64,000 bases of DNA from Deltaproteobacteria bacterium (GTDB lineage Bacteria; Bdellovibrionota; JACOXK01; 2-02-FULL-40-11): positions 9,242-73,241 of the forward strand of contig JACQJD010000046.1 of the NCBI GenBank assembly GCA_016198185.1, given 5' to 3'. The notes under the pieces are model-generated. The model was not told the DNA's origin, ran no database searches, and saw only the letters and a program-made list of their open reading frames with translations. This document shows, one piece after another, positions 4,865 to 64,000 of the stretch; position 1 is the stretch's first letter, and every line of letters begins with the position of its first letter. Position numbers and translations under genes: made by a program.

Positions 4865-4866
4865 AA

Positions 4867-5165
4867 GGAAAGCCTCTAAATCTGGTTTTATCAGAGGAAA
4901 ATTTATTTACGTAAATCTAATAATTTTACTCCTTGGAGATTGACTGATAAACCACGCGGTCAAATGACCCTGCAAGTCATTTGCCGCTCAGCTCTCGGCC
5001 TCGCTCTTTTTTGTAAAGCCACAAGTGGCTGCGCACTTGTGGCTTTACAAAAAAACCATGCCCGCTCGGCCTGCGAGATGGGTTTATCAGTCAATCTCCA
5101 AGGAGCTACGTCATAGCTTATTTAAATAAATTTCCCTCTGATAAAACCAGATTTAGAGGCTTTCC
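4867..5165. repeat. About 300 bp nested (three-level) palindromic element between convergent genes
   Basis: Outer arms of about 44 bp (4867-4910 versus 5120-5165). Middle arms are a perfect 25 bp (ctccttggagattgactgataaacc / ggtttatcagtcaatctccaaggag). Inner stem is a perfect 18 bp (tttgtaaagccacaagtg ... cacttgtggctttacaaa). Confidence 0.6.
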
Positions 5166-6457
5166 TCACACTTTTTCAAGCACGGCTCGGCCTTGTGAAG
5201 CAGCACATTGGCTGCGTATTGACCCGTTAAAAAACTATCTTCTAGCCCACAGATATTGTGATCCCCAATGACAAAGAGGTTTTCTTGGGGATTCAAACAA
5301 TGCCACGAAGGACCCGATATCGTAATGGCGGATCTCCAATGCACTGCTTTTCGAATTTTAAAATTGCTGTAATATTTTTTGAGAGATTCAAACTGGGGTT
5401 TTAATTCTGTCTCGTACTTCCCGTTTTCTAAAATGGAAGGGTCCGCCGCTGATGTTGATAACGATCCTTTTACATAAACCGTGTCACTTCCATCGCGATT
5501 TTTCCATAGACATAATACGGGCTCATCTCGAGCGGTCATGACAATGCGAGCGTGCTCATAGATGGGCTTGCGTTCTCCTTCAACCGCAAGAACACAAACT
5601 GAACTTTCATGAAAAGGCTCTTCGGAATACACCCCAAAAGGGTTTGTTCGAAGTACCACTTCCTGCATCCTCTGTGGAACAACTCTGGGAATAACACCCG
5701 TCAACAACTTTTCAACGACTTTCACAGGGGTTGCCAAAACCACAGCCTCTGCTTCAAATCTTTCTTTGGGCGTCTGAACATAAAAACAGCCCCCCTCTTG
5801 GCCAATCGTCATTACGCGGTCATACCAGATTTGATTTCCAAATCCTTGACCAAGCTTAGATAGCGTTTCTGTAAAATCAGCTTCATAGGCACAAACCCAG
5901 GTTGGGAATAACGCCGATAAATAAAATAACGTATTCACTTCTTCTACAGTAACAAAAAATGTGGCTCGAAGGATGGGATGGATAAACTTTTCATGCAACT
6001 CACAAAGCCCCTGTTGTGCAACATAGTCTTTGGCCGGAAGCTTCATCCATCTTTGAATTAAAGGATAATCCTGTAAAACATGTTTTTGGCACTCACCCCT
6101 AGCTTGTTTTCTGAATTTTAGAAGTTCACAGCGAAGGCAAGCGACATCCCTTAGAACGTTCATCAACTTCGGAAAATTTTTTAACCCTCCCCTTCGAAAT
6201 AATGAAAATGGGCCGTTTACTGTTTCAAAATAAACATCTCGAATACGAATGGCAAGACCGTCATCACAAAATTTACGCACCTCATGATAATCTTTCGTAA
6301 TGTATTTGGCGCCCCAAGACATCCCAGACTCAGCATAGATTCTTCCGCCCAAGCGCTCTGTAATCATTACAAAAGAGCGACCCGCATCGTAAAGGGTGCG
6401 CGCACAGGCAAGCCCAGCAATACCACCGCCAACAATCACAATGGGTGTTTGCGTCAT
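5153..6457 (-). CDS. FAD-dependent oxidoreductase (amine oxidase / protoporphyrinogen oxidase-like)
   Basis: N-terminal 'IVIVGGGIAGLACARTLYDAGRSFVMITERLGGRI' FAD-binding motif; 434 aa. Confidence 0.55.
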   Translation of the reverse strand: MTQTPIVIVGGGIAGLACARTLYDAGRSFVMITERLGGRIYAESGMSWGAKYITKDYHEVRKFCDDGLAIRIRDVYFETVNGPFSLFRRGGLKNFPKLMNVLRDVACLRCELLKFRKQARGECQKHVLQDYPLIQRWMKLPAKDYVAQQGLCELHEKFIHPILRATFFVTVEEVNTLFYLSALFPTWVCAYEADFTETLSKLGQGFGNQIWYDRVMTIGQEGGCFYVQTPKERFEAEAVVLATPVKVVEKLLTGVIPRVVPQRMQEVVLRTNPFGVYSEEPFHESSVCVLAVEGERKPIYEHARIVMTARDEPVLCLWKNRDGSDTVYVKGSLSTSAADPSILENGKYETELKPQFESLKKYYSNFKIRKAVHWRSAITISGPSWHCLNPQENLFVIGDHNICGLEDSFLTGQYAANVLLHKAEPCLKKCEESL

Positions 6458-6523
6458 AGAACAAAACCATAAAGGATAAATAACCCCTTGCCAAGAATAA
6501 TGGATCCTTTATGAAGAAACCCC

Positions 6524-7258
6524 ATGAAGATCAAACTCGTCATTCACTATGATGGCACTCGTTTTATGGGCTGGCAACGCCAGCCTGGCAAATTAACCAT
6601 TCAAGGAAAGATCGAAGATGCTCTTTACAAACTGTATCATCGCAACCTTAAAATTTATGGCGCTTCACGAACCGATGCAGGCGTTCATGCCAAAGGGCAA
6701 GTGGCTCATTTTATAGCTCCCATCACTGGTGCACCTCCCAAAAATCTTGCACACAAGATCAATCCCTATCTTCCTTCGGATATTCGAATTCGATCTGCAG
6801 AGAAAGTGGCCGATGATTTTCATGCCCGCGAAAGTGCCCGTTCCAAACGCTATGAATACGTCATTTTGAATCATCCGCACGAAATATCAACCTCTCTCCA
6901 CCTCTGGTGGGTAACGCACCCTCTCGATATTGTTCCCATGAACGAAGCATGCCAGTACCTGCTGGGAAGTCATGATTTTAGTTCTTTCCAATCGAGCGGA
7001 AGTCATTCCCCTACGCCCATCCGAGAAATTTTTGAGGCTTTTTGGAAACGCGAAAAAGATCACGTCATCTTTACCATTCGTGGCAGTGGTTTTTTAAAAT
7101 TCATGGTAAGAAATTTGGTAGGCACCTTAACACTTGTCGGACAAAAAAAGATCACCCCCTTGGATTTTAAAGCTATTTTAGAAAAGAAAAATCGAAGTGA
7201 TGCAGGCGCCACAGCACCGGCCTGTGGCTTAACTCTGATCGAAATCTGTTACGCATAA
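6524..7258 (+). CDS. truA: tRNA pseudouridine(38-40) synthase
   Basis: 'IHYDGTRFMGWQRQPG ... RTDAGVHAKGQVAHF' is a classic TruA signature including the catalytic Asp in RTDAGVHA; 244 aa. Confidence 0.9.
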   Translation: MKIKLVIHYDGTRFMGWQRQPGKLTIQGKIEDALYKLYHRNLKIYGASRTDAGVHAKGQVAHFIAPITGAPPKNLAHKINPYLPSDIRIRSAEKVADDFHARESARSKRYEYVILNHPHEISTSLHLWWVTHPLDIVPMNEACQYLLGSHDFSSFQSSGSHSPTPIREIFEAFWKREKDHVIFTIRGSGFLKFMVRNLVGTLTLVGQKKITPLDFKAILEKKNRSDAGATAPACGLTLIEICYA

Positions 7259-11248: not shown

Positions 11249-11467
11249 TTGAAGTTGATAACACTACAGACATAAACTTAGAAGATTTATTCTGTTTTCT
11301 TTTGGTTTGAATATTTATCGCGATAAAAACCGAAAATATATAGTGTTCAAAATTTGAATCGGACCATGGAAAATAGCGGCTCTCTTTCCCCATAAATTGA
11401 CATCCTAGAATTTGTCGTCAATTTTTTCGATAGCTTAAAGTTAAGATGAATTATGCACTACGTGCAT

Positions 11468-11629
11468 AATTCCCCCGAGCCCTAAAAGGGCGAGAGGGGC
11501 CCCATGCGTTGGGGAAAGATTTTGAATATTGTCAGGATGGAAGGCAGCCCGTCATGCCGAGCGTTAGCGAGGCATCTCGGTGTTTAAGCCAAGGTAGTAG
11601 CGTCATTCCGAACGAAGTGAGGAATCTCT
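11468..11629 (+). repeat. Array of three CCGAG..CGAGG mini-palindrome variants (plus orientation)
   Basis: aattcccccgagccctaaaagggcgagaggggcccc; cgtcatgccgagcgttagcgaggcatctcgg; cgtcattccgaacgaagtgaggaatctct. Confidence 0.6.
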
Positions 11630-11674
11630 ACGCAAATAGAATGTAGTGACTGCCTTTTGGTAAAAAGAAATGCT

Positions 11675-12157
11675 CTATTCTCCTCCTCCATATTTCACTG
11701 ATGACTCTTTTATAGGACTTATCTTTTTACCTAAAAAATCACAGATATAAGCTGTTACAATAAATTCTCCAAAGGTCGTACTTTCCAAAAAAACTGGAAC
11801 ATGCATATTTTGATTTTCTTCCAAGAAAGAAAATTTATGTTTTTTTTCATAAAGTATTTCAATTTTATCTTTTACTTTCTTTTGAATTTTAATAAAAACT
11901 GAATCTGCCTTTGTTGATGTATTCTTATTCGCCTCTATAACGAATAATGTGCGATTTGATGGATGCTTTAGGCTTCCCTCTCCAATCGATGAATTCCATA
12001 TATTGAAATCCGGATTAAAGATATTTTCAGACCATCCCCCAACACCATGGTAATACAAAAAACCTTTGACAGATAAAATTTCTGGAACTTTCTCTTGCGC
12101 AGCGAATAAAGGAAAGGAAAAGAGAAAGAAAGTTAGAACAAGAAAATATGTTTTCAT
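11675..12157 (-). CDS. Hypothetical small secreted protein
   Basis: Signal peptide MKTYFLVLTFFLFSFPLFAAQ (start taken at the internal Met of the 172-aa ORF). Flanked by inverted mini-palindrome arrays. Confidence 0.45.
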   Translation of the reverse strand: MKTYFLVLTFFLFSFPLFAAQEKVPEILSVKGFLYYHGVGGWSENIFNPDFNIWNSSIGEGSLKHPSNRTLFVIEANKNTSTKADSVFIKIQKKVKDKIEILYEKKHKFSFLEENQNMHVPVFLESTTFGEFIVTAYICDFLGKKISPIKESSVKYGGGE

Positions 12158-12219
12158 CAGCGATTTATAGCAAAGCATATCGATATAGATCAATAATTTT
12201 TGAAGACTTCCAATTCACA

Positions 12220-12401
12220 GAGATTCCTCACTTCGTTCGGAATGACAATATTACTCTGGTATACATCGATGAGACCCCTCACTTGCGTTCGGGGTGACGT
12301 GTCTAAGCTTATCCTGGCTTGCAGCCCAGTCTTTCCCTGGTGCGGGGAGATCCTCTCGGCTCTTCGAGCCTCGGGATGAATTAGCGCACATGCGCTAATT
12401 C
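12220..12401 (-). repeat. Mirror-image array of CCGAG..CGAGG mini-palindrome variants plus a perfect 24-bp palindrome
   Basis: agagattcctcacttcgttcggaatgac (reverse complement of the copy at 11601), gagacccctcacttgcgttcggggtgacg, ggagatcctctcggctcttcgagcctcgggatg, then gaattagcgcacatgcgctaattc. Confidence 0.6.
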
Positions 12402-12530
12402 AATCTAACTATCCTTCCCCTCCCCAAAAACCTCAAAAAAAGCCCCTGTTTCTACCAGCCAGACTGTGACAATTGGCCTCGTATTTAAGCCCTTGCTGTT
12501 GGCCCATGGAGACCGAATTTTTCGATAGTC
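12385..12530 (+). repeat. About 140 bp conserved 'P' element (copy 1), candidate small RNA or mobile module
   Basis: Near-identical to 33318..33462 (...ctaactatccttcccc...gcccctgtttctaccagccagact...ggcctcgtatttaagcccttgctgttggcccatggagaccgaatttttcgata). Both copies sit about 30 bp upstream of a hairpin element. Confidence 0.55.
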
Positions 12531-12557
12531 CTGTAGAGGGTATTTCGGCCTTGATAA

Positions 12558-12645
12558 GGTGTTCGCGTAGCGCGCGGTGTGGCGGCCCAGGACGCGTGCT
12601 ACGCGAACACAACCAAGTCCTTAGAAATATTGACTTTTTCTTTTC
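12558..12645 (+). repeat. Hairpin element A (type-1 arm / core / type-1 arm / type-1 tail)
   Basis: ggtgttcgcgtagcgcgc - ggtgtggcggcccaggacgcg - tgctacgcgaacac, then the tail aaccaagtccttagaaatattgactttttcttttc. Confidence 0.7.
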
Positions 12646-14826: not shown

Positions 14827-14854
14827 TACAATTTTTCCTTATTGTGAAACCTAG

Positions 14855-14941
14855 CATTTCGACCAGCGCGCGGTGTGGCGGCCCAGGACGCGCGCTACGC
14901 GAACACCACCAGGTCCTTAGAAATATTGACTTTTTCTTATC
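14855..14941 (+). repeat. Hairpin element B (type-2 left arm / core / type-1 right arm)
   Basis: gcatttcgaccagcgcgc - ggtgtggcggcccaggacgcg - cgctacgcgaacacc - accaggtccttagaaatattgactttttcttatc. Confidence 0.7.
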
Positions 14942-21044: not shown

Positions 21045-21143
21045 GGCTTTGGTCAGGTGTTCGCGTAGCGCGCGGTGTGGCGGCCCAAGACGCGCGCTGG
21101 TCGAAATCTCTAAGGCCGTGTTAAATCTACGTTTTTTCTTCTC
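21045..21143 (+). repeat. Hairpin element C (type-1 left arm / core variant 'caaga' / type-2 right arm and tail)
   Basis: gctttggtcaggtgttcgcgtagcgcgc - ggtgtggcggcccaagacgcg - cgctggtcgaaatctctaaggccgtgttaaatctacgttttttcttctc. Confidence 0.7.
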
Positions 21144-30189: not shown

Positions 30190-30624
30190 TGGCAAAAAAC
30201 TGTGGGGAATACTGATCAACATTAGATTTAATTGTCCATACAGTGCTCTTAAAATTTCACTGTTCTATATCGGTGCCAGCTTACCTGCTCAAACGTCCAA
30301 ATGCAAAAGTGGCTCGACACCATTTACAAGAGATAATCACACTTTTGGGCTGCCAACTCTGGCAGCCCATTCCCACCTTTTTTAAAAGGTTTTTTCATTC
30401 CACGCCCTTTATTTTTTTTCAAAAAAGACACTCTTTCACCGTAAATTGACACCCTAGAATTTATCGTTACTTATTTTTTCAGCTTAAAGTTAAGATGTAA
30501 CCTTGAATATCGCTCCCATTCCAAAGTCTAGGCAGATCGTTTGGAAAATTAAAGTACGTGTAACAACCTTCAAGAAGATAGTTATTGAGAAAAATATTTT
30601 AAAGAGAGTGAGCCAAAACAATAA

Positions 30625-33317: not shown

Positions 33318-33462
33318 AGTTCAATCTAACTATCCTTCCCCCCTCCCAAAAAATCTCAAAAAAGCCCCTGTTTCTACCAGCCAGACTATGGCAATCGGCC
33401 TCGTATTTAAGCCCTTGCTGTTGGCCCATGGAGACCGAATTTTTCGATATGTACCTATGAGG
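33318..33462 (+). repeat. About 140 bp 'P' element (copy 2)
   Basis: About 90% identical to 12385..12530, again followed by a hairpin element. Confidence 0.55.
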
Positions 33463-33473
33463 GTAACCTATTG

Positions 33474-33572
33474 CTTTGGTCAGGTGTTCGCGTAGCGCGC
33501 GGTGTGGCGGCCCAGGACGCGCGCTGGTCGAAATCTCTAAGGCCGCGTTAAATCTACGTTTTTTCTTCTCAA
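33474..33572 (+). repeat. Hairpin element D (type-1 left arm / core / type-2 right arm and tail)
   Basis: Near-identical to element C (...gctttggtcaggtgttcgcgtagcgcgcggtgtggcggcccaggacgcgcgctggtcgaaatctctaaggccgcgttaaatctacg...). Confidence 0.7.
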
Positions 33573-35545: not shown

Positions 35546-35559
35546 AAAGTCAGTTTCTC

Positions 35560-35676
35560 CAGGTGTTCGCGTAGCGCGCGGTGTGGCGGCCCAGGACGCG
35601 CGCTACGCGAACACCACCAGGTTCTTAGAAACATTGACTTTTTCTTTTCCACCCCTCTCGATGATCCAGCTCTTTT
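35560..35676 (+). repeat. Hairpin element E (type-1 / core / type-1, long tail)
   Basis: aggtgttcgcgtagcgcgc - ggtgtggcggcccaggacgcg - cgctacgcgaacacc - accaggttcttagaaacattgactttttcttttccacccctctcgatgatccagctcttttgg. Confidence 0.7.
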
Positions 35677-50194: not shown

Positions 50195-50282
50195 TTATGG
50201 CTTTAGTAACGCAACAGGAAATTGTAAGCAAGAATATTTTAATTGAAACAAATCTTATCTTTTCATTTTAGAAATCTTTTCC

Positions 50283-50372
50283 CCTTATCCTAAAGATCTT
50301 CTCTCCAGGGAGTTGGAACGAGGAGTCTATATTTCCAACTCCCTGGAGAGAAGATCTTTAGGATAAGGGGAC
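50283..50372. repeat. Perfect 38-bp inverted repeat in a divergent promoter region
   Basis: ccccttatcctaaagatcttctctccagggagttggaa ... ttccaactccctggagagaagatctttaggataagggg, with a 14-nt loop. Confidence 0.6.
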
Positions 50373-52247: not shown

Positions 52248-54677
52248 TCAGGCGGTGCCACTCACATGGGCGCGGGTCAGATAAAATGGCTTTTTATAGG
52301 TTTTCCCGGAAACTTTTTTGTCGATTGAAAATAAACTTTCAGGGTGTTTTAAATCCAGAGCTCGTTTTAAAACCTCATCCATGTGATCCACGGGAATGAC
52401 TTTGAGCTTCTTTAAAACCTTACTCGGAACATCTTTCAAATCCTTCTCATTTTCTTTGGGAATCAACACCGTTTCAATACCACTGCGATAGGCCGCCAAC
52501 ATTTTTTCCTTGAGCCCCCCGATGGCCAGCACCCGGCCCCGCAACGTTACTTCCCCTGTCATCGCCACCGTTTTTCGAACAGGAACCCGAATGAGCGCAG
52601 ACGTTAAACTGGTTGCCATCGTAACCCCCGCCGAAGGACCGTCTTTGGGAATGGCGCCTTCGGGCACATGAATATGAATGTCTACTTGTTGATAAAAATC
52701 TCTCGCCAACCCCAGCATTTCTCCTCGAGAACGAACATAGCTTAACGCCGCTCTGGCAGACTCTTTCATGACGTCTCCCAACTGTCCGGTAATGGTAAGG
52801 CTTCCTTTTCCTGGCATAATGGCACATTCCACCGCCAATAATTCTCCACCCATTTCCGTCCAAGCCAACCCATTCGTCAACCCAATTTCGTGAATTTCCT
52901 CAAGTTGAACGGGCATATATTTTTCCACACCCAACAATTCTTTCACCGTTTTTTCAGAAACCAAAACAGCTTCTTTTTTCTTTTGTTGGTTTTCTACTAT
53001 TTTTTTCGCAAGTTTTCTAAAAATGGTGGAAATCTCTCGCTCTAAGTTTCGAACTCCCGCTTCTTTGGTATACCGATGAATGATGTACAAAATGGCTTCA
53101 TCTTGAAAGGTGATGGGGTAGTCTTTCAGCCCATGCATCGACTTTTGTTTGAGCACTAAAAATTGTTTGCTGATGTGAAGCTTTTCTTCATCCGTATAGC
53201 CTGGAAGTCGAATGACTTCCATTCGATCCAAGAGCGGACGTGGAATATTGTGAAGCGTATTGGCTGTCGCAATAAAGAGCACTTTGGATAAGTCGTAGTC
53301 TACTTCTAAATAATGATCTGAAAACGTTGAGTTCTGCTCTGGATCTAATACTTCAAGCAGCGCTGCTGCTGGATCTCCTCGGAAATCCATGGCCATCTTA
53401 TCCACTTCATCCAACAGAAAGACAGGGTTTGAAGAGCCTGCTTTTTTAATCGATTGAACGATTTTACCGGGTAAAGACCCAATGTAGGTTCGGCGATGCC
53501 CTCTGATTTCAGCTTCATCGCGTACCCCTCCCAGTGAAGATCGCACAAAATTTCTTCCCAAGGCTCTGGCAATGGACCGCGCCAAAGAGGTTTTTCCCAC
53601 TCCCGGAGGCCCCACAAAACACACAATCGGCCCACAAATTTTTTGAGACAACGTTTGAACCGCAATGTGTTCTAAAATTCGATCTTTAATGGCTCCCAAC
53701 CCATAATGATCCTCATCCAACACTTTTTGTGCTTGATGAATATCTGTATTGTCCGTTGTATAGCAACCCCATGGCAATGAAATCACCCAATCCACATAAT
53801 TTCGAATCACTGTCGCCTCGGCAGACATCGGAGACATCATTTTTAATTTTCGAAGTTCTTTTTTTATTTTTTTAGCGGCTTCTTCTGATAATTTTTTCTT
53901 TTTAATCGTTTTTTCAATGTCCTGAATTTCAGCCCGAAACTCATCACGCTCACCCAATTCTTTTTGAATCGCATGCATTTGTTCGTTCAAATAATACTCT
54001 TTTTGGGACTTCTCCATTTGCTTTTTCACGCGCGTGCGAATCTTTTTTTCGATTTGTAAAATTTCAATTTCTTTTTGAATAACGCGAAGCAGCTCTTCCA
54101 AACGAACCTTGGCATCTGTGATCTCAAGCATTCTTTGTTTTTCTTCTATTTTAAGAGGAATGTGCGCCGCAATCGTATCTGAAAGCTTGGCACCGGACTC
54201 AATGGAAGTCACTGTCATCAGAATTTCAGGTGGAATTTTTTTATTAAGCTGAACGTAACTTTCAAAAGCTTCTTTAATACTTCGAATTAAGGCTTCAGAT
54301 TCACGATTTTTTTCTTCGGTTTCGGTCAGAGGTTCTACCAACGCTTCATAAAATCGCCCTTCTTTTTTAAATTGCAAGAGCCGAACGCGTTTTCTTCCTT
54401 CAATGAGCACCTTAACGGTACCATCGGGAAGCCTCAAGAGTTGAATAATCGCCCCCAAAACCCCGATCCGATACACATCTTCTTCGGTTGGGTCATTGGT
54501 TTTGGCTTGTTTTTGCGCAATGAGCAAAATATCTTTCTTTTGCCCAAGCGCTTCTTCCAACGCGTTAATCGATTTTTCACGCCCCACAAACAAGGGAACA
54601 ATCATATGCGGAAATACAATAATGTCCCGCAAGGGCAGCAGTGGCACAATTAATTTTTTTTCTGACGCATCTGCCAT
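52248..54677 (-). CDS. lon: ATP-dependent Lon protease
   Basis: Walker A 'GPPGVGKTS', the Lon N-domain, and the C-terminal protease domain with '[13 protein letters not shown]'; 809 aa. Confidence 0.95.
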
Positions 54678-55996
54678 TAGGCATTCTCCGCTTTCTTCAA
54701 TATCTTTTTAGGGGTCTCCTCTTCTTTTTCCGTTGGACCCACCTCTGATTCCGCTCCGCTATAAATTAACAAGGGCCTTTCATGTTTTAAAACCACATCT
54801 TCACTGATCACACATTCACTTACTTCTTTTAAGGAAGGTAATTCATACATCACTTCCATCATCGCCTGTTCTAAAATCGCACGCAACCCTCTGGCACCTG
54901 TCTTTCTTTTCAATGCTTCTTTGGCAATGGCACTTAACCCAGACTCCGTAAACTTCAGTTTCACATTCTCAAACTCAAACAACTTGGCATATTGTTTGGT
55001 GAGCGCATTGCGAGGGGTTACCAAAATTTCAATTAACGCCTCCTGCGATAGCTCATGAAGCGCTGCAATAATGGGAACGCGCCCTACAAATTCTGGAATC
55101 ATCCCATACTTTAACAAATCTTCGGGTTGCACACTTTGAAGGGCATCCGATAACCTTTTTTCAGATTTCGGACGAACTTCCGCGCCAATACCCATCATGC
55201 GAGAGTCCAAGCGACTTTCAATGATTTTTTCCAATCCCACAAAAGCGCCCCCACAAATAAAGAGAATATTGGTGGTATCGACTTGTAAAAATTCTTGCTG
55301 GGGATGTTTCCGCCCCCCTTTGGGTGGAATGTTGGCCATGGTTCCTTCCATGAGCTTTAAGAGAGCTTGCTGAACGCCTTCTCCCGAAACGTCTCTTGTA
55401 ATAGAAGGATTTTCACCTTTACGCGCAATTTTGTCGATCTCATCAATGTAGACAATACCCTTTTGTGCTCTTTCGACGTCAAATTCTGCATTCTGCAACA
55501 GATATAAAATAATATTTTCGACATCTTCTCCAACATACCCTGCTTCGGTGAGCGTCGTTGAATCCACCATGGTAAAAGGAACTTTCAAAACTTTCGCCAA
55601 GGTTTGGGCCAGTAAGGTTTTTCCACAGCCGGTTGGCCCTAACAGTAAAATATTGCTTTTTTGAAGCTCGACATCACTTTGTTTTTTACTGTTGATTCGC
55701 TTGTAATGATTGTAAACCGCAACCGAAAGAATTTTTTTGGCCTGCTCTTGGCCAATCACATACTCATCTAAAATGGCTTTAATCTCAGCTGGCTTTGGAA
55801 GATTTTTAAGGGCAACGCCTGCTTCTTCCTTGGTGCCTTCTTCTGCAATGATGTCATTACACAGATCTATACACTCGTCACAAATGTAAACGGTCGGCCC
55901 GGCAATCAATTTTTTAACTTCTTTTTGGCTCTTGCCGCAAAAAGAACAATAAAGATTTCCGAATTCGTCTCCTCGTCTTCCACCTGTATGTGACAT
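54677..55996 (-). CDS. clpX: ATP-dependent Clp protease ATP-binding subunit ClpX
   Basis: N-terminal zinc-binding '[27 protein letters not shown]', Walker A '[11 protein letters not shown]' and 'IGF' loop region. Confidence 0.95.
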
Positions 55997-56026
55997 GAAG
56001 GTCGCCTCCGTTCCGAACTTCGTTTA

Positions 56027-56626
56027 TTACTTTTGTACTTTAATTTTTCGAAGCTCAATTTTATGATCGATTAAGCCATACTTTACAGCATCTTCACTTG
56101 ACATATAATAATCACGATCGGTATCTTTTTCAATGGTCTTAATGCTCTGCCCTGTGTGCGATACCAAAATGTCATTGAGCTTTTTTCGAAGCAATAAAAT
56201 TTCTTTCGTTTGAATTTCAATGTCTGCCGCTTGCCCCTGAAAGCCTCCCATGGGTTGATGAATCATCATCCGCGCATGCGGCATCGCAAACCGCTTTCCT
56301 TTAGAACCTGCTGCAAGTAATAACGCCCCCATGCTGGCCGCAAGCCCCAGACAATACGTCGCAACATCCGGCTTAATATATTGTAAGGTATCGTAAATCG
56401 CGAGCCCCGCCGTCACACTCCCCCCAGGAGAGTTAATATAAAAACTAATGTCTTTTTCAGGATCTTCCGCTTCCAAAAATAAAAGTTGGGCAATAATTAA
56501 ATTGGCAATTTCATCATTGACCGGCGATCCTAAAAAAATGATTCGGTCTTTGAGCAAACGAGAGTAAATATCATAAGCTCGCTCGCCTCGGTTCGATTGT
56601 TCAATAACGATGGGAATCAGTGGCAT
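56027..56626 (-). CDS. clpP: ATP-dependent Clp protease proteolytic subunit
   Basis: Catalytic Ser in 'GLAASMGA', plus His/Asp context; 199 aa. Confidence 0.95.
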
Positions 56627-56681
56627 ATATAAAAGTATAAGAAATAATATTGTTTACTTCAACTCTTTTTAAGTGTGGGGG

Positions 56682-57986
56682 TTATTTTGAAGGTTTGACT
56701 TCGGTAACCTTTGCGGCAGAGATTAAAAAATCCATGGTCTTTTTTTGCCGAACCTGCCACCTGATTTGAGACAATAGCCCCGCTTTTCGATAGTGATCGT
56801 GAATTTGTCCAAAAGTCATGCCTGATCGATCGGCAATGTTTTTTAAATGCTGGTCAATCTCCTCTGGCGTCACCCCGATTTTTTCTTGATCTGAAATCAC
56901 CTCTAGCAACAAAATAAATTGAACATCAAAAATCGCTCTTTTTTTAAGGTCTTCTTTCATTTTTTCAAGATTTTCTTTGATGAGGGCCTGAGGCATTCTG
57001 AAAGACTCCAACCGTCGCTCAGCATCATCCATTAAATACGCCTGCTGCCTTTCAACCATGGTGGGCGGCGGCGTCAAAGGATTGCCTTTTACCAATGCCT
57101 CTGCAAGCTGCACTTCTAGTTTCTGTTCTGAGCGTTCATCGTTGTGTCTCTGGAGCTCTTCTTTTAATTTTTTTTCTAAATCAGCCAGCCCCGTGCAGCC
57201 ATCCCATGTTTTGGCAAGCGCATCGGTAAGCTCAGGGATTTGTTTTTCCTTAATTTCGCAAAGCGTGATTTGAAAAATAGCCAATTTGCCCGCTACGTTT
57301 TTTTCAGAAAAATCTTTTGGAAAGGTTACTTGAATTTCTTTTTGTTCACCTTGCGTCATGCCCAAAAGGCCCTGCTCGAAATCCGCCACCAAACGACCAG
57401 AGCCAAGCTCGTAGAGAAAATTTTTAGCCTCGCCCCCTGCAAATTTTTTACCCTCGAGCGTTCCCACAAAATCAATCACCACAAAATCTTTTTTTTGGGT
57501 CACACGCTTTTGTTCCACCTTCTTTAATTCTGCCTTGCGTTCTTGAAGATCTTTTAACGCTGCTTCAACCTCTTTTTTCGTTACGTCGACCTTTTCTTTT
57601 TGAACCTCCAACCCTTTATATTTTTTAAGGTCAATCTTGGGTTTTACTTCAATCGTCACGGTATAGGAGAAGGACTTACCTTCTTCAAAGGGCTGGGCTT
57701 CAATTTTGGGAGACGCCACTGGAAAAAGAGAATGATCCGTCAAGGCTTGCGTATAAGAACTTTCAATGAGGTGCGAAACAATCTTTCGTTGCACATCGGC
57801 TGAAAATCGAGTGCGAACCAACTGCAACGGTGCCTTTCCAGCCCGAAATCCGGGCAATTTTACATCACGTGCCAGCTCTGCATAATACGTTTGAATTTGA
57901 TGTTGAATTTCATCTGGCGGAATTTCAACCGAGAGCTTCTTTTCGACATCTGAAAGGTCTTCAACTTTTACTTTGGCCGCTGACAT
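56682..57986 (-). CDS. tig: Trigger factor
   Basis: N-terminal ribosome-binding 'GFRAGKAP' motif, central FKBP-like PPIase region and C-terminal domain; position upstream of clpP-clpX-lon. Confidence 0.85.
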   Translation of the reverse strand: MSAAKVKVEDLSDVEKKLSVEIPPDEIQHQIQTYYAELARDVKLPGFRAGKAPLQLVRTRFSADVQRKIVSHLIESSYTQALTDHSLFPVASPKIEAQPFEEGKSFSYTVTIEVKPKIDLKKYKGLEVQKEKVDVTKKEVEAALKDLQERKAELKKVEQKRVTQKKDFVVIDFVGTLEGKKFAGGEAKNFLYELGSGRLVADFEQGLLGMTQGEQKEIQVTFPKDFSEKNVAGKLAIFQITLCEIKEKQIPELTDALAKTWDGCTGLADLEKKLKEELQRHNDERSEQKLEVQLAEALVKGNPLTPPPTMVERQQAYLMDDAERRLESFRMPQALIKENLEKMKEDLKKRAIFDVQFILLLEVISDQEKIGVTPEEIDQHLKNIADRSGMTFGQIHDHYRKAGLLSQIRWQVRQKKTMDFLISAAKVTEVKPSK

Positions 57987-58083
57987 AAGGCGGGACCTTA
58001 TCAATTATAAGGTCAGAAAGCAACTTCTGGTGGCGCATATCTAGAACAAGATGGTCGAGTTCTAAGGCCTGTTGAAAAAGGCC

Positions 58084-59742
58084 TTAAGGAAGGGTAAAGA
58101 CGCCGAGTTCTTTGGCAGTATTCAAATAAAAAACCTTGAGCTTGCCGCGTTCACGAAAAATTTGAACTTTTTGAAAAGGGCCACTGATCCCAGGCAATGT
58201 CGTTGGCGATGAGGTGATCCCCCCTGAAGCAAAGAAGGAGAGCAAGGAACTGGCAGTCTCGGCAATGACCGTAGCCCCGCCACAAGGCAAAGCATAGGCC
58301 GTCCAATCTTGGAGACCAGACATCGTCCACGTACGGGTGGCAGACCACAGACCCCCACCATCCCTTGAAATGCGCAAATGAAATTGATCCCCACTCCCTT
58401 TCCATAGAACAGCGATGGAACCATCTTCTTCACTGGAAATAATTTTGGGTGAGAAAGCCCCATTGGCACTCATGCTCAATTTGGTCATCGTGGGAACCCA
58501 AACGCCTTGCTGTTTGCGCATGAAAAAAAGCTCGCTTTGATTCGAAATAAAAACAACCCGGGCCGATCCAAAATGTGTATCAAGATCAAAAGCCTGTGGC
58601 GAAGCAAGCTCGACACCTCCCACTTCCTCTGCCACAGCCCCCTTGGCGGGATCGATGGAAACCACTTTTAAACGCAAGCGCTGCTCACCCACATCTGGCT
58701 GATTGGAATTGGGATAAGCCATCGTGGCACCGAGAGCAATATAAGCAACGCCACTGGCATCTTGCCCAGATTTTACAATTTTATGGGCTGGAATACTTTG
58801 AAAAATAGGCACTTCTATAAATTTTGACGTTTGTGGATCTGTAATAAACCCCTCTGTAATTCCAGAAGAAAGGTTGTGTTTAAAGGCGTATAAACTGAGG
58901 GTGTCTTTTTTCGTGCCATCGGTTTTAAAATTTTCGGATAACGCTACGACAATGGGAATACCATCTGACAATTGAAATCCATAAATTTTGCGTATCGCAA
59001 GCTTCCGGCTGGAATCAAAAAATGAAACACGACTTCCTTGGGCATTAAAGACACCATAACTGAGCCGATCTTCATTTTGAGCTTGCGTTCTGCCATATCC
59101 AATTAAGAATCCTTGTCCTTGCCGATCTGAAAAAAGACGTGCTTGCGCAATCGAAGCAGAGGCAGATTCAATATGAAAAGAAGGCTGATACAGTGTATTG
59201 AGCGTGGCGCCTTCCAATAAATGAAATTGAGAACCGGTGGTAAGCCCATAGACTGTTTTTTGATCCGCCAAGAAGAGTTGGTCCACAGAAAAATCTTCCA
59301 CGTTCGTTCGAATCACCCTCTTTGAAAAGGGCTGCGTCCGCACCGTCAAACGTGCATAGGCTTCCATCTGCCCTCGGTGAATGGAAAATGCTTTGAGTTT
59401 GATCAGGGTAGATCCTGCGCCTAAGGCTTGAACACAACCGTTGGGCTCTAAAGAAACCACCGGGTTTTGAGCATTTTCATCAACCACGCTGAATTCGACA
59501 TCTTTTAAAAATTCACTTTTGGAGGCTTCTCCCAAAAAGTGTTCCCCAGTCGAAGAACTCACAAAAACACCACCATATAACCGATGGGTCATGCCAACTT
59601 GGAGATCCAATTCATCAATCACATCTCCTTCAAAGGCTTGAATGGCAATGGAAGAAGGCTTGACCCCTTCGTAATTCATACTGCAGGCAGAAAAAAGGGC
59701 CACCCCAACCATAAAGAAATTTAGTCTCTGAATCACTTTCAT
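58084..59742 (-). CDS. Hypothetical lipoprotein
   Basis: Lipobox ...GVALFSAC. At 552 aa it is probably beta-rich. Confidence 0.4.
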   Translation of the reverse strand: MKVIQRLNFFMVGVALFSACSMNYEGVKPSSIAIQAFEGDVIDELDLQVGMTHRLYGGVFVSSSTGEHFLGEASKSEFLKDVEFSVVDENAQNPVVSLEPNGCVQALGAGSTLIKLKAFSIHRGQMEAYARLTVRTQPFSKRVIRTNVEDFSVDQLFLADQKTVYGLTTGSQFHLLEGATLNTLYQPSFHIESASASIAQARLFSDRQGQGFLIGYGRTQAQNEDRLSYGVFNAQGSRVSFFDSSRKLAIRKIYGFQLSDGIPIVVALSENFKTDGTKKDTLSLYAFKHNLSSGITEGFITDPQTSKFIEVPIFQSIPAHKIVKSGQDASGVAYIALGATMAYPNSNQPDVGEQRLRLKVVSIDPAKGAVAEEVGGVELASPQAFDLDTHFGSARVVFISNQSELFFMRKQQGVWVPTMTKLSMSANGAFSPKIISSEEDGSIAVLWKGSGDQFHLRISRDGGGLWSATRTWTMSGLQDWTAYALPCGGATVIAETASSLLSFFASGGITSSPTTLPGISGPFQKVQIFRERGKLKVFYLNTAKELGVFTLP

Positions 59743-60017
59743 GGATAATCTTTTTTAGGATCGTTACTCTGTTACGTTCTTTTTTTAGATCCTTATTTCA
59801 TTATAACCGCCGACGGAAAAAGGTCAATTTTTAATTTTAAAAATTCATACTTCTTTGGGCAATACAAACCCAAAATGGCCCCCAGTGACACAAAACGTCA
59901 CTTCTCAAAACGCTGGCGAACGAGCGTTCCCAACCCATTGAAGTAACTCATTTTCTATAGTATACAATTTGGCATTCTTTTTGCTCCTCTTTCTGTAGGG
60001 AGGGTGTCGAATAAGTC

Positions 60018-60083
60018 ATCCCGAGAGCCGAAGGCTCGAGGGATCTCATCGTAGATTCCTCGCACGTTGTGCTCGGAATGACA
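60018..60083. repeat. Pair of oppositely oriented CCGAG..CGAGG mini-palindrome variants upstream of the giant ORF
   Basis: gtcatcccgagagccgaaggctcgagggatc, then gattcctcgcacgttgtgctcggaatgac (reverse complement of the gtcattccgagc...gaggaatc consensus). Confidence 0.55.
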
Positions 60084-60113
60084 GTTTTTCGACAGCCTCT
60101 CTGTAAGGAACAC

Positions 60114-63100
60114 ATGAACGACCGCCTCGCTAAACGTTTGTTTTATTGGGTGCCAAAAATTGTCACTCAGGTTATCGGTTTGAGTCTCCTGCCAATAGCT
60201 CTGGGGCTCGAACTTCAATGCCGCCTCAGAGCTATTGGCAGGGGACTCACGTTGCTTCCCTTTGACCTTGCTACAGTTTGTATCTTAGGGATGACTGCTG
60301 TATCCGCTTTTGCAGAGCCTCTCGTGTGCTCCGTAGAAAATCGCTATTCGCCAATGAGCTTCCAAGAGTTTGTTCTGCAAGGAACGCCTTCATTTCCGCT
60401 CTTTTCCAATCAAGAGCTCAAAGAATATTATTCACCTCAAGAGCTCTCTGACTTTGAAAAGGTCCTTTCAGCCGTTTATCTTTTTCCACAAGATTTAGAT
60501 ATTGATCATCTTTTTTTAGAAAATTTAGCGGTAGAAGATATTTCTTCTTTGGCCCAAGAATTTTTTGACGCGGAAGGTCTTTCTTCAGCGAAAGAATCAA
60601 GTGAATTTAAAGAAGCCCTTTTGGGATGGCAAGCATTTGGCGTTGATCCCATTCTACTCATCAATACCTGGCAGGTTACAAAACTAGAACTCGCAGATGC
60701 TGAATTTATTTCTTGGCTTCATGAAACAGATTCTTTTTCGGATGAAGATTTAAAAGCTTCGCCTTCTACACTTTCCAAAGAACGAAAATATCATTTGATT
60801 AAAGAATATAAAATTGAACCTTTGATTTTAGAAATTCTTACCCAACGAATGATTTTAGCCATGATGGCAGTCTGGCAAGAAGAAGGGAAAGTGGATTTAA
60901 CCGAGTCTAATCTTTTGCATGAAAAATTACTTTCTTATCAAAAAATGCAACCTCCACTGGTTGACTTAGAAGATGTCCAAAAACAAAAAGAAAAGATTTT
61001 AAAGGAAGTAAAAGCCCAAAAGAAAGCGCTTTTAGCTTTCATCCCAAAAATGGAAGAAAATGCTTTGGTAGAATTCTTTAAAAGTTTCCCACGAATGATG
61101 GAACGAGCGCTTAATCTCTCCCTTGCCAATATTGCTTACTGGGATGGAAAGCTCTGGGGAGCGGCTTTTGGCAAGAACTGGGATTGGTCAGATGTAGGCG
61201 CAGATATTATTAATTTTAACAGAGAGATGATGAATAATTATGGAGGTGGTTCTTATTTGGGAAGCGATTTAGAATTTGCAAACGTAGCACGAGAAAAGAA
61301 ATTCTTTGGATTGAATCTAGAAAAAACATTTGGGCAAGAGGTTGAGAAATTCTATGCAGAGCATGTCAATTTGGAACTTGCCGCAGAATCTTTTAATGTT
61401 TTTGAACCTGTCGGAAGAGCTTTGGCCCCCATAGCCCAACCTATCCTCAATTATCTTTATGAAAAGAAAAAAGATTATGACCTTTGGGTCACTGGTTTAA
61501 CAGAAAAACAATATGAACGGGCTCTTCAAGAAGATAGGTACTTGCAACTGGGACAATTGGGATTGGATGCAGCCCTTACTTCGCTTGAGCTACTTGCCTT
61601 TCGAGGAACGAGAATTTCTTCCCAAAGACTGGCCAGACTCTCAAAACTAAAGAGAGCCACCCCTTCTAGAATACGATTTGTAAAAAGACAAAGGACGTGG
61701 AGGGCATTTCAACCGCTCATCGTTGCAGGAGTTTTGGGAGGGGCTTCGTCGCTGGGGGCAGAACTCTATCAAGTCGGAGAAAACAAGAAATCATTTAGTT
61801 TCTTTAGACTGCTGCATCAAACAAATCTTTCAACAGAAGGCAGTCTTATATTTATGAAGATGACCCAAGCCCTCAGTAATCTTGTAGCAAGACAAGGGGG
61901 ATTTACACCGAAAGCTGTAGAACACGCCAAAGTACTTTCAAAGAGTCTCGATTTCACAGAAGGTTCACTCGATATTCCAGGAACGATTGCGATGATAAAG
62001 AAAGCCCGAAGTAATCTGGGACTGCTTGGAAGCTCACTTATTTTGGGAGCCAATATTTTTGATACGACAGATGTTTCGGTGTCTGGGGTGCTTCATTCTT
62101 TGAAAGCCCTGATACCAGGCAAATCAAAAGCTATTCCGAGTGAACACGTCATTCCGAATGAACTTGTCATTCCGAGCGAACACGTCATTCCGAATGAACA
62201 CGTCATTCCGAGCGAAGCGAGGAATCCCATCGATTCAGCTGATTACAACGCCACCCTTGCAAAAGCCCGTCTTGTCTTGGGACAAGACATCCCAGATCGG
62301 CTTGCAGAGCTCATTTACGCCTCCCACCGCGTTGGGTACGCAGAACCAGGAAAAGATGGATCTCCTGCGTGCATCGGAAATTACACCGATCTTCAACTCA
62401 TTGAAAAAACAAAAATCCTCACCCTCGCCGTGGAAGAAGGCTGGATCACCTACCCACAACTTAAAAAACTCATCCAAGAAGGAGTGGTGGGATCTCAAAT
62501 TGCTCCCATCATCCGACCTGGCGAAATGCGAATTCCACCCGAAATCAAAAAGGCTATTGAAGAAGGAGAAGGCAAGCGCGATTTCATAGCCTACGTGACC
62601 CAAATCTGGGGAAAAAAGTTTAAAGCGGCTGTCACCGCCAAAGCACTTTCTGATGCGCATCAAATTCTAAACACCTACGAAACCATGGTAAAAGAGCCTG
62701 CGATCCTCAAAGACAAAAAAGCAGAAGCTGCGCTCATTGAAAAAGTTGTAGCCTTGGGAAAACGACGAGCACCTATTTTAGATCAGACCTTCGTTCCTCA
62801 AATCGAAAGATTATATCGAGAATCTTCTATCGACGACCGATTCCAACCCCACCATCAATGGCGAATGATTGACCTCTTACGACAAATGGACACTGCCGAA
62901 GCCGCGACATCACTCGTCACCCTGCTTTCAGAAGAAAGAGATGACGACATGGTCCAACCTTTCAAACGTGGCCTGCTTCGAATGAAATCCGCCAAAGCTG
63001 TGATTCAAACCAAAGCTGTAACATCTTCGGCGTCACAACCTGTCAAAGACTTAGCGGAATTGTACCGAAAGGCCGAAGAAAGTCCGTCTGGTCTCCTCAC

Positions 63101-64000
63101 GCAACTACAAGAAGCATTGAAACAGCAGAAGCACTCCCAAGATAGTTTTGATACCCATGAGGGTTGGATACTTGTCCTGAGATGGTCTTCTGATCCCAAC
63201 TTGGTCATCACAGCTTTCTTGGGTCACCTTCCCACGGCAGACCGGTCTTCTATGAACAGAAGACACGTTAGACCGCTGCTGATGGTTTTAGAATCATTTG
63301 GAAAAGAGTCTGCGCACTTTAGAACCCTTGCCCCTGCACTGATGGAAGTACTCAGAAAGGTAGTAAGAAACAATCGCCCATGGAAAAAAGATCTTGCCTT
63401 TATCCTTGTTGAAATCAAAGCCTTGCCACGGATCCCAGACTACATCACGCGCATTTGTCTTTTGATTCCCGAAGCAGATCAGGCACAAGCCTGGGTGGAA
63501 ATCAACAAAAGACGCTTGGGATTAAAACCAGGCTGGACAATACTCAATTGGCATGAACACTTAAACTACCACTCACAAGCAACCCATATATTAGGCGATT
63601 ATTTTGAACTTCTCGATGCCAATTTACGAAGTCTTTTCGACCAGCCCAAAAAGAGACAATCAAAAGAAAAAAAGGAACCCTTTTTTGAGACAGATCTTTT
63701 GGATAATGTTTTTCATCAGGAAGATACCGTCATGCCCCCAGAAACCCTTGTCCTAATAGGAGATAGACAAATTCCAGTGCTCTATGAACAAGATGCGATG
63801 GATGAAGTCGGGTTTGATCCTCACGAATACGACCCCCTTTGGATGGCAGAGTTGTTTGATGATGATGTTATCGTTCGACAACGTGCTGCCCTGAGGTTGC
63901 ACGGCTATATCATCCGCTGGCGAATACGTTATGTGCTTTCTAAAGAAGCAGAGGGTCAAGAAGAGCAATTTGAAAGCGCCAGAGCACTTTTACAATTTAC
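60114..64000 (+). CDS. Very large protein (at least 1295 aa, runs off the window end) with an internal HVIPSE pentapeptide repeat; function unknown
   Basis: ATG at 60114 has an aaggaa RBS 7 nt upstream. Read by eye, the frame has no stop to position 64000. It is absent from the ORF track, presumably because no stop lies in the window. Only short ORFs exist in the other five frames across these 3.9 kb. Confidence 0.65.
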   Translation, partial: MNDRLAKRLFYWVPKIVTQVIGLSLLPIALGLELQCRLRAIGRGLTLLPFDLATVCILGMTAVSAFAEPLVCSVENRYSPMSFQEFVLQGTPSFPLFSNQELKEYYSPQELSDFEKVLSAVYLFPQDLDIDHLFLENLAVEDISSLAQEFFDAEGLSSAKESSEFKEALLGWQAFGVDPILLINTWQVTKLELADAEFISWLHETDSFSDEDLKASPSTLSKERKYHLIKEYKIEPLILEILTQRMILAMMAVWQEEGKVDLTESNLLHEKLLSYQKMQPPLVDLEDVQKQKEKILKEVKAQKKALLAFIPKMEENALVEFFKSFPRMMERALNLSLANIAYWDGKLWGAAFGKNWDWSDVGADIINFNREMMNNYGGGSYLGSDLEFANVAREKKFFGLNLEKTFGQEVEKFYAEHVNLELAAESFNVFEPVGRALAPIAQPILNYLYEKKKDYDLWVTGLTEKQYERALQEDRYLQLGQLGLDAALTSLELLAFRGTRISSQRLARLSKLKRATPSRIRFVKRQRTWRAFQPLIVAGVLGGASSLGAELYQVGENKKSFSFFRLLHQTNLSTEGSLIFMKMTQALSNLVARQGGFTPKAVEHAKVLSKSLDFTEGSLDIPGTIAMIKKARSNLGLLGSSLILGANIFDTTDVSVSGVLHSLKALIPGKSKAIPSEHVIPNELVIPSEHVIPNEHVIPSEARNPIDSADYNATLAKARLVLGQDIPDRLAELIYASHRVGYAEPGKDGSPACIGNYTDLQLIEKTKILTLAVEEGWITYPQLKKLIQEGVVGSQIAPIIRPGEMRIPPEIKKAIEEGEGKRDFIAYVTQIWGKKFKAAVTAKALSDAHQILNTYETMVKEPAILKDKKAEAALIEKVVALGKRRAPILDQTFVPQIERLYRESSIDDRFQPHHQWRMIDLLRQMDTAEAATSLVTLLSEERDDDMVQPFKRGLLRMKSAKAVIQTKAVTSSASQPVKDLAELYRKAEESPSGLLTQLQEALKQQKHSQDSFDTHEGWILVLRWSSDPNLVITAFLGHLPTADRSSMNRRHVRPLLMVLESFGKESAHFRTLAPALMEVLRKVVRNNRPWKKDLAFILVEIKALPRIPDYITRICLLIPEADQAQAWVEINKRRLGLKPGWTILNWHEHLNYHSQATHILGDYFELLDANLRSLFDQPKKRQSKEKKEPFFETDLLDNVFHQEDTVMPPETLVLIGDRQIPVLYEQDAMDEVGFDPHEYDPLWMAELFDDDVIVRQRAALRLHGYIIRWRIRYVLSKEAEGQEEQFESARALLQF

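Follow-up and report, generated by a model that had tools for sequence, protein, structure and literature searches.

In-frame insertion of repeats into protein-coding genes is already known from Rickettsia and other bacteria. The Rickettsia palindromic element RPE-1 is a selfish palindromic repeat that lies in frame in protein genes and leaves the protein intact. It is confined to Rickettsia and, at roughly 100–150 bp, is much longer than the hairpin repeat considered here. This hairpin occurs in a 64-kb stretch (the window) of contig JACQJD010000046.1, from a metagenome-assembled genome (MAG) recorded as Deltaproteobacteria bacterium. Near the end of the window, a giant gene with an annotated start codon at 60114 contains a tract of 33 codons (62130–62228, + strand, aa 673–705) that consists of four left-arm-only units followed by one complete unit of the hairpin. 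Very probably, the tract is a copy of a small, dispersed hairpin repeat whose insertion hit the coding sequence for a flexible interdomain linker in the giant protein, and it was kept because the reading frame was unbroken. It is a clean new example of in-frame repeat insertion and not a new phenomenon.

The most closely related repeats were classified by Di Nocera, De Gregorio and Rocco (2013, PMC3733652), who split prokaryotic repetitive extragenic palindromic (REP) sequences into GTAG-tagged and CGTC-tagged superfamilies. As described there, CGTC REPs have an unpaired CGTC end (with TGTC and CCTC variants) and a stem that almost invariably starts with complementary A-T in positions 1 and 2. 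Stems are 8–9 bp and loops 4–5 nt (their Table 1), while tails are short, with the consensus CCA. Tag-outward (head-to-head) dimers predominate, tandem (head-to-tail) arrangements are negligible, and no transposase is associated with the repeats. Intragenic copies are present in several species, and the resulting inserts are encoded in many unrelated proteins. Peptides encoded by the CGTC-1 family include VIPAKAGI, SFPRKRES, CHSRESGNP, and DSRFRGND. The same source assigns Rickettsia conorii RPE-6 and Neisseria dRS3 to CGTC-1, and RPE-4 to CGTC-4.

The other relevant system is the Neisseria NTS, CGTCATTCCCGCGMAVGCGGGAATCYRG, which is bound as single-stranded DNA (ssDNA) by SsnA, a GIY-YIG nuclease of 94 aa (Chenal et al. 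2025, PMC11893778). The cut falls a few bases ahead of the hairpin. Cleavage requires the three bases before the palindrome and binding requires the C that follows it, and a change in the palindrome sequence that keeps the hairpin abolishes activity. The ssn genes are commonly flanked by Ssn-related motifs (SRM) (PMC11893778).

The complete terminal unit of the tract, CGTCATTCCGAGCGAAGCGAGGAATC (62201–62226, + strand), can be divided as CGTC-ATTCC-GA-GC-GAA-GC-GA-GGAAT-C, and was recovered by motif scan, as repeat family D18, and in the DNA fold. It is equal to the intergenic copy at 11601–11626 at 24 of 26 nt, and the two differences together make up one compensatory change, A-T to G-C, in the inner stem. 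The remaining four of the five units are half units that comprise the tag, the left arm, and the loop, and never the right arm. Units 2 and 4 have a small palindrome of their own (TCATTC-C-GAATGA), and variation among the units is mainly limited to two codons (S/N and H/L). Most of the tract is thus a tandem array (62133–62216, + strand; repeat family D10), for which Tandem Repeats Finder gives a period of 18 nt with 4.7 copies (score 126) and a super-period of 36 nt at 93% matches (score 147). The initial annotation of this DNA, made by a model from the sequence alone, had described an array with a 15-nt period and about five units, ending in a full one. The array is real and its last unit is complete, but the period is 18 nt, which is also the length of the unit as it was written out there, and the other units are only halves. 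The tract peptide had been given correctly, its predicted translation being AIPSEHVIPNELVIPSEHVIPNEHVIPSEARNP (aa 673–705); a predicted peptide of the insert is AIPSEHVIPNELVIPSEHVIPNEHVIPSEAR.

The giant protein is modular, as judged from its HMMER matches, and the tract falls between two of its modules. An exhaustive HMMER search with the protein returned 55 distant relatives (P numbers below), those with a named source coming from Bdellovibrionota and Bacteriovoracales MAGs. Ahead of the tract is a helical ‘middle’ domain that lies within aa 435–680 and ends in FDxxDxSxSG; its aligned part (aa 537–666; 61722–62111, + strand) matches P0004, P0007, P0003, P0013, P0021, and others. Behind it is a domain of ~80 aa (aa 713–796; 62250–62501, + strand) with the motif AHxVG..GKDG.PA.IGNYT...K..IL....G.VG and about 40 matches. 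An AlphaFold2 model of aa 430–830 gives predicted local distance difference test (pLDDT) values of 82–95 for the helical domain and 92–97 for the ~80-aa domain. For the tract, values are 35–36, with coil and no secondary structure. As modelled, the tract is a disordered linker between two confident domains.

One of these relatives is P0007, a Bdellovibrionota MAG protein recorded at 5000 aa, in which the two flanking domains also follow each other in this order, as parts of a single protein and separated by 11 residues. It aligns to aa 538–795 in one local alignment, with a single gap of 35 residues over the tract, and the same gap is seen in the multiple alignment. Removal of aa 673–705 from the query raises the P0007 score from 221 to 255. 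Tract-like sequence is found in none of the 55 distant relatives, P0007 included. The in-frame insertion of a dispersed palindromic repeat proposed in the initial annotation is supported: the gap in P0007, the near-identity to the intergenic unit, and the model together support insertion into linker-coding DNA.

Under a different reading, the VIPSEH tract would be an ancestral low-complexity linker, and its likeness to the intergenic repeat would be coincidental. The site is indeed a linker that varies in length and sequence among relatives, and Pro/Glu-rich repeats are common in linkers. However, coincidence sits poorly with a terminal unit that equals an intergenic copy except for a compensatory stem change, with an exact 25-mer that recurs in many phyla, or with the clean 35-aa gap in P0007 and the lack of the tract among relatives. 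An ancestral origin is therefore largely refuted and scarcely credible. The giant open reading frame (ORF) could also be an artefact, either of a chimaeric contig joined at the repeat or of two genes with the repeat in the spacer between them. In favour of this, G+C content rises from ~0.36–0.44 before the tract to 0.46–0.50 after it, and repeats are classic points of misassembly in MAGs. Despite the rise in G+C, misassembly or gene fusion is disfavoured by the single-gap alignment to P0007, where both domains follow one another in one protein. Furthermore, no stop codon occurs across the junction, and the nearest in-frame Met past the tract is ~100 codons downstream. An artefact of either kind is very unlikely.

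Some observations do count against the preferred explanation. P0007 is distant (~31% identity), and linkers vary among the relatives. Its gap therefore shows that the tract is absent from the P0007 lineage and does not give the ancestral state in a close orthologue, of which the databases searched contain none. The nearest-neighbour folding energies of single hairpin units are also unremarkable (z from +0.5 to -2.3).

The hairpin unit is permissive as coding sequence. Direct reading shows that five of its six frames are free of stops, with a TGA in one reverse frame, and any insert with a length that is a multiple of three would therefore be tolerated. Once the repeat had entered the linker-coding DNA, the left half of the unit would have been amplified on the spot, in two rounds. 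As the periods of 18 nt and 36 nt suggest, 18 nt would have been duplicated first, GAGCGAA would then have diverged to GAATGAA, and a duplication of 36 nt would have followed, with survival only of length changes in multiples of three. The product is probably a Pro/Glu/His-rich spacer of 33 residues that is neutral for the protein. Alternatively, the tract could be a selected functional peptide repeat, such as a length-tuned spacer or binding motif, that has been co-opted and not merely tolerated. Amplification did preserve the frame, with variation concentrated at the two codons named above, and the very similar VILNET-VIPSEARNL is found in frame in an unrelated TPR protein. Yet retention of the frame needs no positive selection when five of six frames are open, the tract is modelled as disordered and is not conserved in homologues, and inserts encoded by REPs are present in many unrelated proteins (PMC3733652). 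Selection for the peptide is quite unlikely, and a tolerated insertion remains the preferred reading.

The gene that carries the insertion is incomplete in the window. From the ATG at 60114, the frame is open to base 64000 (1295 codons, no stops in translation), in agreement with the initial annotation, and the AAGGAA that was there taken as the ribosome-binding site is located at 60105–60110. This 5' part (60114–64000, + strand) runs beyond both the window and the contig end. A word-index homologue search of 5.8 billion proteins returned a sole match, 100% identical, to the NCBI entry ‘MAG: hypothetical protein HY390_03870, partial [Deltaproteobacteria bacterium]’ (1349 aa, on a 73.4-kb contig). 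The gene is thus already annotated as partial, and it leaves the contig 160 nt past the window. The absence of the giant ORF from the ORF list that accompanied the sequence had been put down to a requirement for a stop codon inside the window. ORFs that run off the source are indeed omitted from that list, and the gap is hence a listing artefact.

Pfam contains no family for the giant protein, a second word-index search with the tract removed from the query gave no matches, and Foldseek comparison of the modelled domains with the PDB returned nothing below E = 0.1. Besides the two domains that flank the tract, a conserved N-terminal region (aa 93–408; 60390–61337, + strand) aligns with P0002 (E 4e-46), P0003, P0006, P0010, and P0020. 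Among the relatives scanned, Pfam gave no match for the ~80-aa domain and no informative domain in the three shared regions. The ~80-aa domain is present in one to three copies in dozens of large proteins that have no other detected similarity to the giant protein, and looks like an undescribed domain family. Its longer motif, from the window and P0005–P0056, is AHxVG..GKDG.PA.IGNYT..Q..EK.KIL...GF....R.L...G.VG. Homologues align with the giant protein from aa 93 onward only, and the gene may therefore start further in, at Met 59 or Met 81; alternatively, its N-terminal part may contain another palindromic insert. An inverted repeat with 27-nt arms (93% complementary) is found at 60181–60249, corresponding to aa 23–46 of the annotated N-terminus, and is followed by a signal-peptide-like stretch that ends in AFA-EP.

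The hairpin in the tract belongs to a family that is dispersed in the window. A regular-expression scan of the 64 kb, which required GTC before and C after the palindrome, found seven units: 11551–11575, 11602–11625, 60015–60044, and 62202–62225 on the + strand, and 12223–12246, 12274–12298, and 60055–60082 on the - strand. Together with two looser, degenerate units at ~11470–11503 and ~12347–12380, this amounts to nine units at four loci. All follow one plan. The (C)GTC tag is unpaired and leads into an outer stem of 5 bp whose first bases are AT. Next come GA, an inner stem-loop of variable sequence and length, a second GA, the closing arm, and a C with a short tail. In the predicted DNA fold, a 5-bp stem is followed by a 2x2 internal loop and the inner stem. 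Stems compensate between copies in the window, as seen in the pairs ATGCC/GGCAT, ATTCC/GGAAT, ATCCC/GGGAT, and ACCCC/GGGGT.

Outside the giant gene, the units are organised in one dimer and two clusters. The dimer (60015–60082) is head-to-head, with tags outward (60015–60044, + strand; 60055–60082, - strand), and is situated 31 nt upstream of the annotated start codon of the giant gene. A three-unit cluster at 11470–11626 (+ strand) begins with a degenerate unit (~11470–11503), followed by units 11551–11575 and 11602–11625. Its mirror at 12223–12380 (- strand) has units 12223–12246 and 12274–12298 and then a degenerate unit (~12347–12380), and shares 79% identity with the first cluster in reverse complement, with compensatory changes in the stems. 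These are the three places where the initial annotation had recognised the motif in non-coding DNA. The dimer (60011–60086) folds at -15.8 kcal/mol (z = -3.5), and the whole array of the tract, folded as ssDNA, has a stability that is not unusual (z = +0.17). The motif GTCATTCCGAGCGAA, with two mismatches or fewer, has seven matches in comparison with 0.12 expected, and CCGAGCGAAGCGAGG has three in comparison with 0.06; no shuffle reached either number. Rfam returned two tRNAs only, and no match to the hairpin units, from the whole window at gathering thresholds, and an E-value scan of 59900–60300 gave only chance miRNA-like matches on a long palindrome. Neither the DNA motif nor any of its six translations gave a relevant result in a full-text literature search.

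The two clusters are part of a larger arrangement. An inverted-repeat pair of ~190 nt (79% identical) in 11440–12410 brackets an ORF of 172 aa (11675–12193, - strand), which has a signal-peptide-like N-terminus and no Pfam match. Each ~190-nt repeat consists of a small palindrome and three CGTC-type hairpins with compensatory changes. The tags of this cassette point outward, as in the Neisseria ‘NTS-gene-NTS’ arrangement, and the sequences just outside it recur at 30431–30497 and 33339–33449.

Copies of the hairpin are also widespread in other genomes. A scan of one genome per species with the pattern GTCATNCCGANCGAAGNGAGGNATC gave at least 120 loci, and the counts that follow refer to the matches listed. 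Exact copies are found in at least 15 phyla, and the listed loci come from Acidobacteriota, Bacteroidota, Chloroflexota, Planctomycetota, Gemmatimonadota, Nitrospirota, Patescibacteria, Cyanobacteria, Bdellovibrionota, Verrucomicrobiota, Armatimonadota, and several proteobacterial classes. Of 130 fetched copies, in which four stem positions were unconstrained, 128 have a Watson-Crick outer pair (T-A, C-G, G-C) and 121 a Watson-Crick inner pair (G-C, A-T, C-G). A looser pattern applied to the listed loci found 51 further copies, all with a Watson-Crick outer pair; 78% of these have an inner stem of 2–7 bp with varied sequence, in comparison with 13% of shuffled inners. An inverted partner is present within 100 nt downstream of 51 of 117 copies and upstream of only seven, which indicates that the typical arrangement is a tag-outward dimer. 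Full tandem copies are few (5/117). The family is structured, with stems that covary, is mostly intergenic, and often forms tag-outward dimers.

Frame counts made from stop to stop are unreliable in high-G+C genomes, in which open frames are numerous, and only two copies within genes, both confirmed by Pfam, were kept. One is in an Lhr-type helicase of Luteimonas saliphila, where a tag-outward dimer, VIPSEARNLEVSAEQISRFARND (VIPSEARNL..ISRFARND), is in frame inside a stretched DEAD domain. The other, VILNETVIPSEARNL, is in frame in the TPR protein mentioned above, from a Bacteroidia MAG whose record names an NC_groundwater sample. The half-plus-full arrangement of this insert is very similar to the tract. 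The mini-palindrome TCATTC-N-GAATGA immediately ahead of a full hairpin is seen in the window (62149–62198) and, within 926 kb of fetched DNA, in this Bacteroidia insert only. The MAG of the window may stem from the same groundwater project.

The properties of the unit place it within the CGTC superfamily. Tags in the window are CGTC at 11550, 11601, 62201, and 12299 (- strand), TGTC at 12247 and 60083 (both - strand), and AGTC at 60014. Stems start with AT...AT in six of the seven scanned units and with AC...GT in 12274–12298. The palindrome is followed by a short tail, CTC, or CCC in the coding copy, which is unlike the CCA consensus. Head-to-head dimers are represented by 60015–60082 and by the partner counts in other genomes. 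The 5-bp outer stem, the tandem G·A, and the inner stem of 2–5 bp add up to 9–12 stacked positions, with a loop of 3–4 nt, and these sizes fit the published CGTC values (PMC3733652, Table 1) only if the G·A pairs are counted as stem. VIPSEARN-type units do not appear in the intragenic-unit list, the text, or the consulted supplements of that paper. The element fits a CGTC-tagged REP of a subtype with a tandem G·A loop, which one of the four families of the paper may already include.

The layout of the hairpins is also REP-like in a more general sense, in that the 5' tag is unpaired, the palindrome imperfect, and the dimers inverted, and RAYT systems are widespread. The hairpins could accordingly be REPINs moved by a RAYT (an IS200/IS605-like Y1 transposase) instead of Ssn-related motifs. 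Against this, the tag is CGTC and not GTAG, and PMC3733652 found CGTC REPs to have no associated transposase. All-against-all ORF clustering of the 120 listed loci found no recurrent gene travelling with the repeat (the largest cluster covered 11 loci), and one pair of copies flanks a GIY-YIG gene instead. Mobilisation by a RAYT is unlikely.

By analogy with the Neisseria NTS (CGTCATTCCCGCG...GCGGGAATC), the folded single strand of the hairpin would be a likely site for a small Ssn-type GIY-YIG ssDNA nuclease, and such an enzyme would cut a few bases upstream of the hairpin. Because a changed palindrome abolishes SsnA activity, the subtype in the window would need a cognate enzyme of different specificity. 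Locus L037, from the Bacteroidales MAG Prado084, contains a single-domain GIY-YIG ORF of 102 aa (6600–6905, - strand; PF01541, E 4e-16), flanked by CGTC hairpins of the G·A type with tags outward (6472–6496, + strand; 7058–7095, - strand). This arrangement supports, without proving, a link between the G·A subtype and Ssn enzymes. The unit in L037 lies between direct repeats of at least 74 nt (6381–6455 and 7110–7183) at a contig end, and may have arisen by tandem duplication or be mobile.

Other results weigh against an Ssn connection. The published SRM pattern, HGTCWYN(0-2)YYVSBRHN(0-5)WNVSBRGN(0-2)RNCYNB (PMC11893778), matches no hairpin unit in the window, and its one match, at 27701, is unrelated. 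It is the G·A loop that makes the units fail this pattern. Motif and tblastn scans detected no GIY-YIG gene in the 64-kb window, and only one of the 120 listed loci contains one. The ORF in L037 could not be assigned to cd10448, and its only relative in the PDB is the UPF0213 protein BH0048 (E 1e-4).

Half-unit arrays are not restricted to the tract. Among 117 full units in listed loci of other phyla, 18 have one to three left-arm-only copies upstream, at spacings of 17–29 nt, and none has such copies in the equivalent range downstream. The identity of these copies to the full unit stops after 5–17 nt. Nested self-insertion was considered as the origin of the arrays, and is unlikely since the full unit is not followed by a corresponding series of right arms. 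We know of no copying mechanism or dedicated enzyme for CGTC repeats. It is conceivable, although doubtful, that the CGTC hairpin with a G·A loop is a pan-bacterial recognition site for an Ssn-type or other ssDNA enzyme that the SRM pattern misses, that the left-arm arrays are footprints of copying, and that the tract is a frozen intermediate. In such a process, an array could arise if the DNA were nicked a few bases ahead of the tag and synthesis stalled or switched template at the hairpin apex. If this were true, left-arm-only arrays would be a first handle on the copying of CGTC repeats.

The window contains further repeats and genes that are separate from the hairpin family. A second, unrelated repeat family occurs at 12548–12645, 14844–14941, 21046–21143, 33473–33570, and 35552–35649. 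It consists of a G+C-rich palindrome of ~50 nt (GGTGTTCGCGTAGCGCGCGGTGTGGCGGCCCAGGACGCGCGCTACGCGAACACC) with conserved flanks, and is situated between paralogous gene segments that are themselves duplicated in the window (repeat families D3–D9). An inverted repeat at 50280–50371 has perfect 39-nt arms around a 14-nt spacer, and a set of nested long inverted repeats (4866–5166) has 49-nt arms at 94% and perfect inner arms of 25 nt and 21 nt. Just upstream of the giant gene is an ordinary chromosomal tig-clpP-clpX-lon operon (52248–58004, - strand), and an orphan ORF of 552 aa (58084–59742, - strand) lies between the two.

With the tract, the lengthening of a protein by a REP-type hairpin is well documented beyond the Alphaproteobacteria and Neisseria, the groups in which such inserts have been catalogued. 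The tract ties the idea of an ‘RPE-like’ element to a defined superfamily, that of CGTC-tagged REPs and NTS/SRM. The G·A-loop subtype has an identical sequence in many phyla, yet escapes the published SRM search pattern. In MAGs, its translations (VIPSEARN, SFRAKRGI, HSERSEES, IPRFARND, FLASLGMT) can serve to flag odd low-complexity inserts and spurious small ORFs during annotation, and the hairpin marks spots where assemblies may break. The half-unit arrays could additionally hint at how CGTC repeats multiply.

Compared with known systems, the tract shares with RPE-1 an in-frame insertion that leaves the protein intact and a homologue without the insert. However, RPE-1 is a long element, whereas the unit in the window is 25–26 nt, and the 99-nt tract is made up of half units plus one unit. 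The analogy with Rickettsia palindromic elements drawn in the initial annotation is therefore sound, with the repeat in coding sequence and the frame kept, and is also one of family relationship, because the CGTC superfamily includes RPE-4 and RPE-6. The hairpins resemble REPIN-RAYT systems (GTAG REPs) in being short, tagged, dispersed between genes, and arranged as inverted dimers, but carry CGTC where those carry GTAG, and no Y1 transposase was seen beside the copies. Relative to the Neisseria NTS (CGTCATTCCCGCGMAVGCGGGAATCYRG), the window unit CGTCATTCCGAGCGAAGCGAGGAATCCC starts with the same 9 nt (CGTCATTCC) and ends with the same 6 nt (GGAATC). GTC before and C after the palindrome are present in all seven scanned units, which is no independent evidence as the scan required them, and the degenerate units vary at these positions. 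As with the NTS-gene-NTS arrangement, the window also has a gene bracketed by tag-outward motifs (11470–12380). The closest likeness is to CGTC-1, with which the units share the unpaired CGTC tag, the AT stem start, the short tail, and head-to-head dimers, as well as a mostly intergenic distribution with occasional in-frame copies and no adjacent transposase gene. The encoded peptide begins with VIP.. in the same frame as VIPAKAGI, and VIPSEARN and the other frames mirror the CGTC-1 peptides given in PMC3733652. In contrast to the continuous 8–9-bp stem described there, units of the present subtype have a tandem G·A internal loop in mid-stem, a variable inner stem of 2–7 bp, and a loop of 3–4 nt. 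The host is a Bdellovibrionota-like MAG, and copies extend to many phyla beyond the five reported in that paper.

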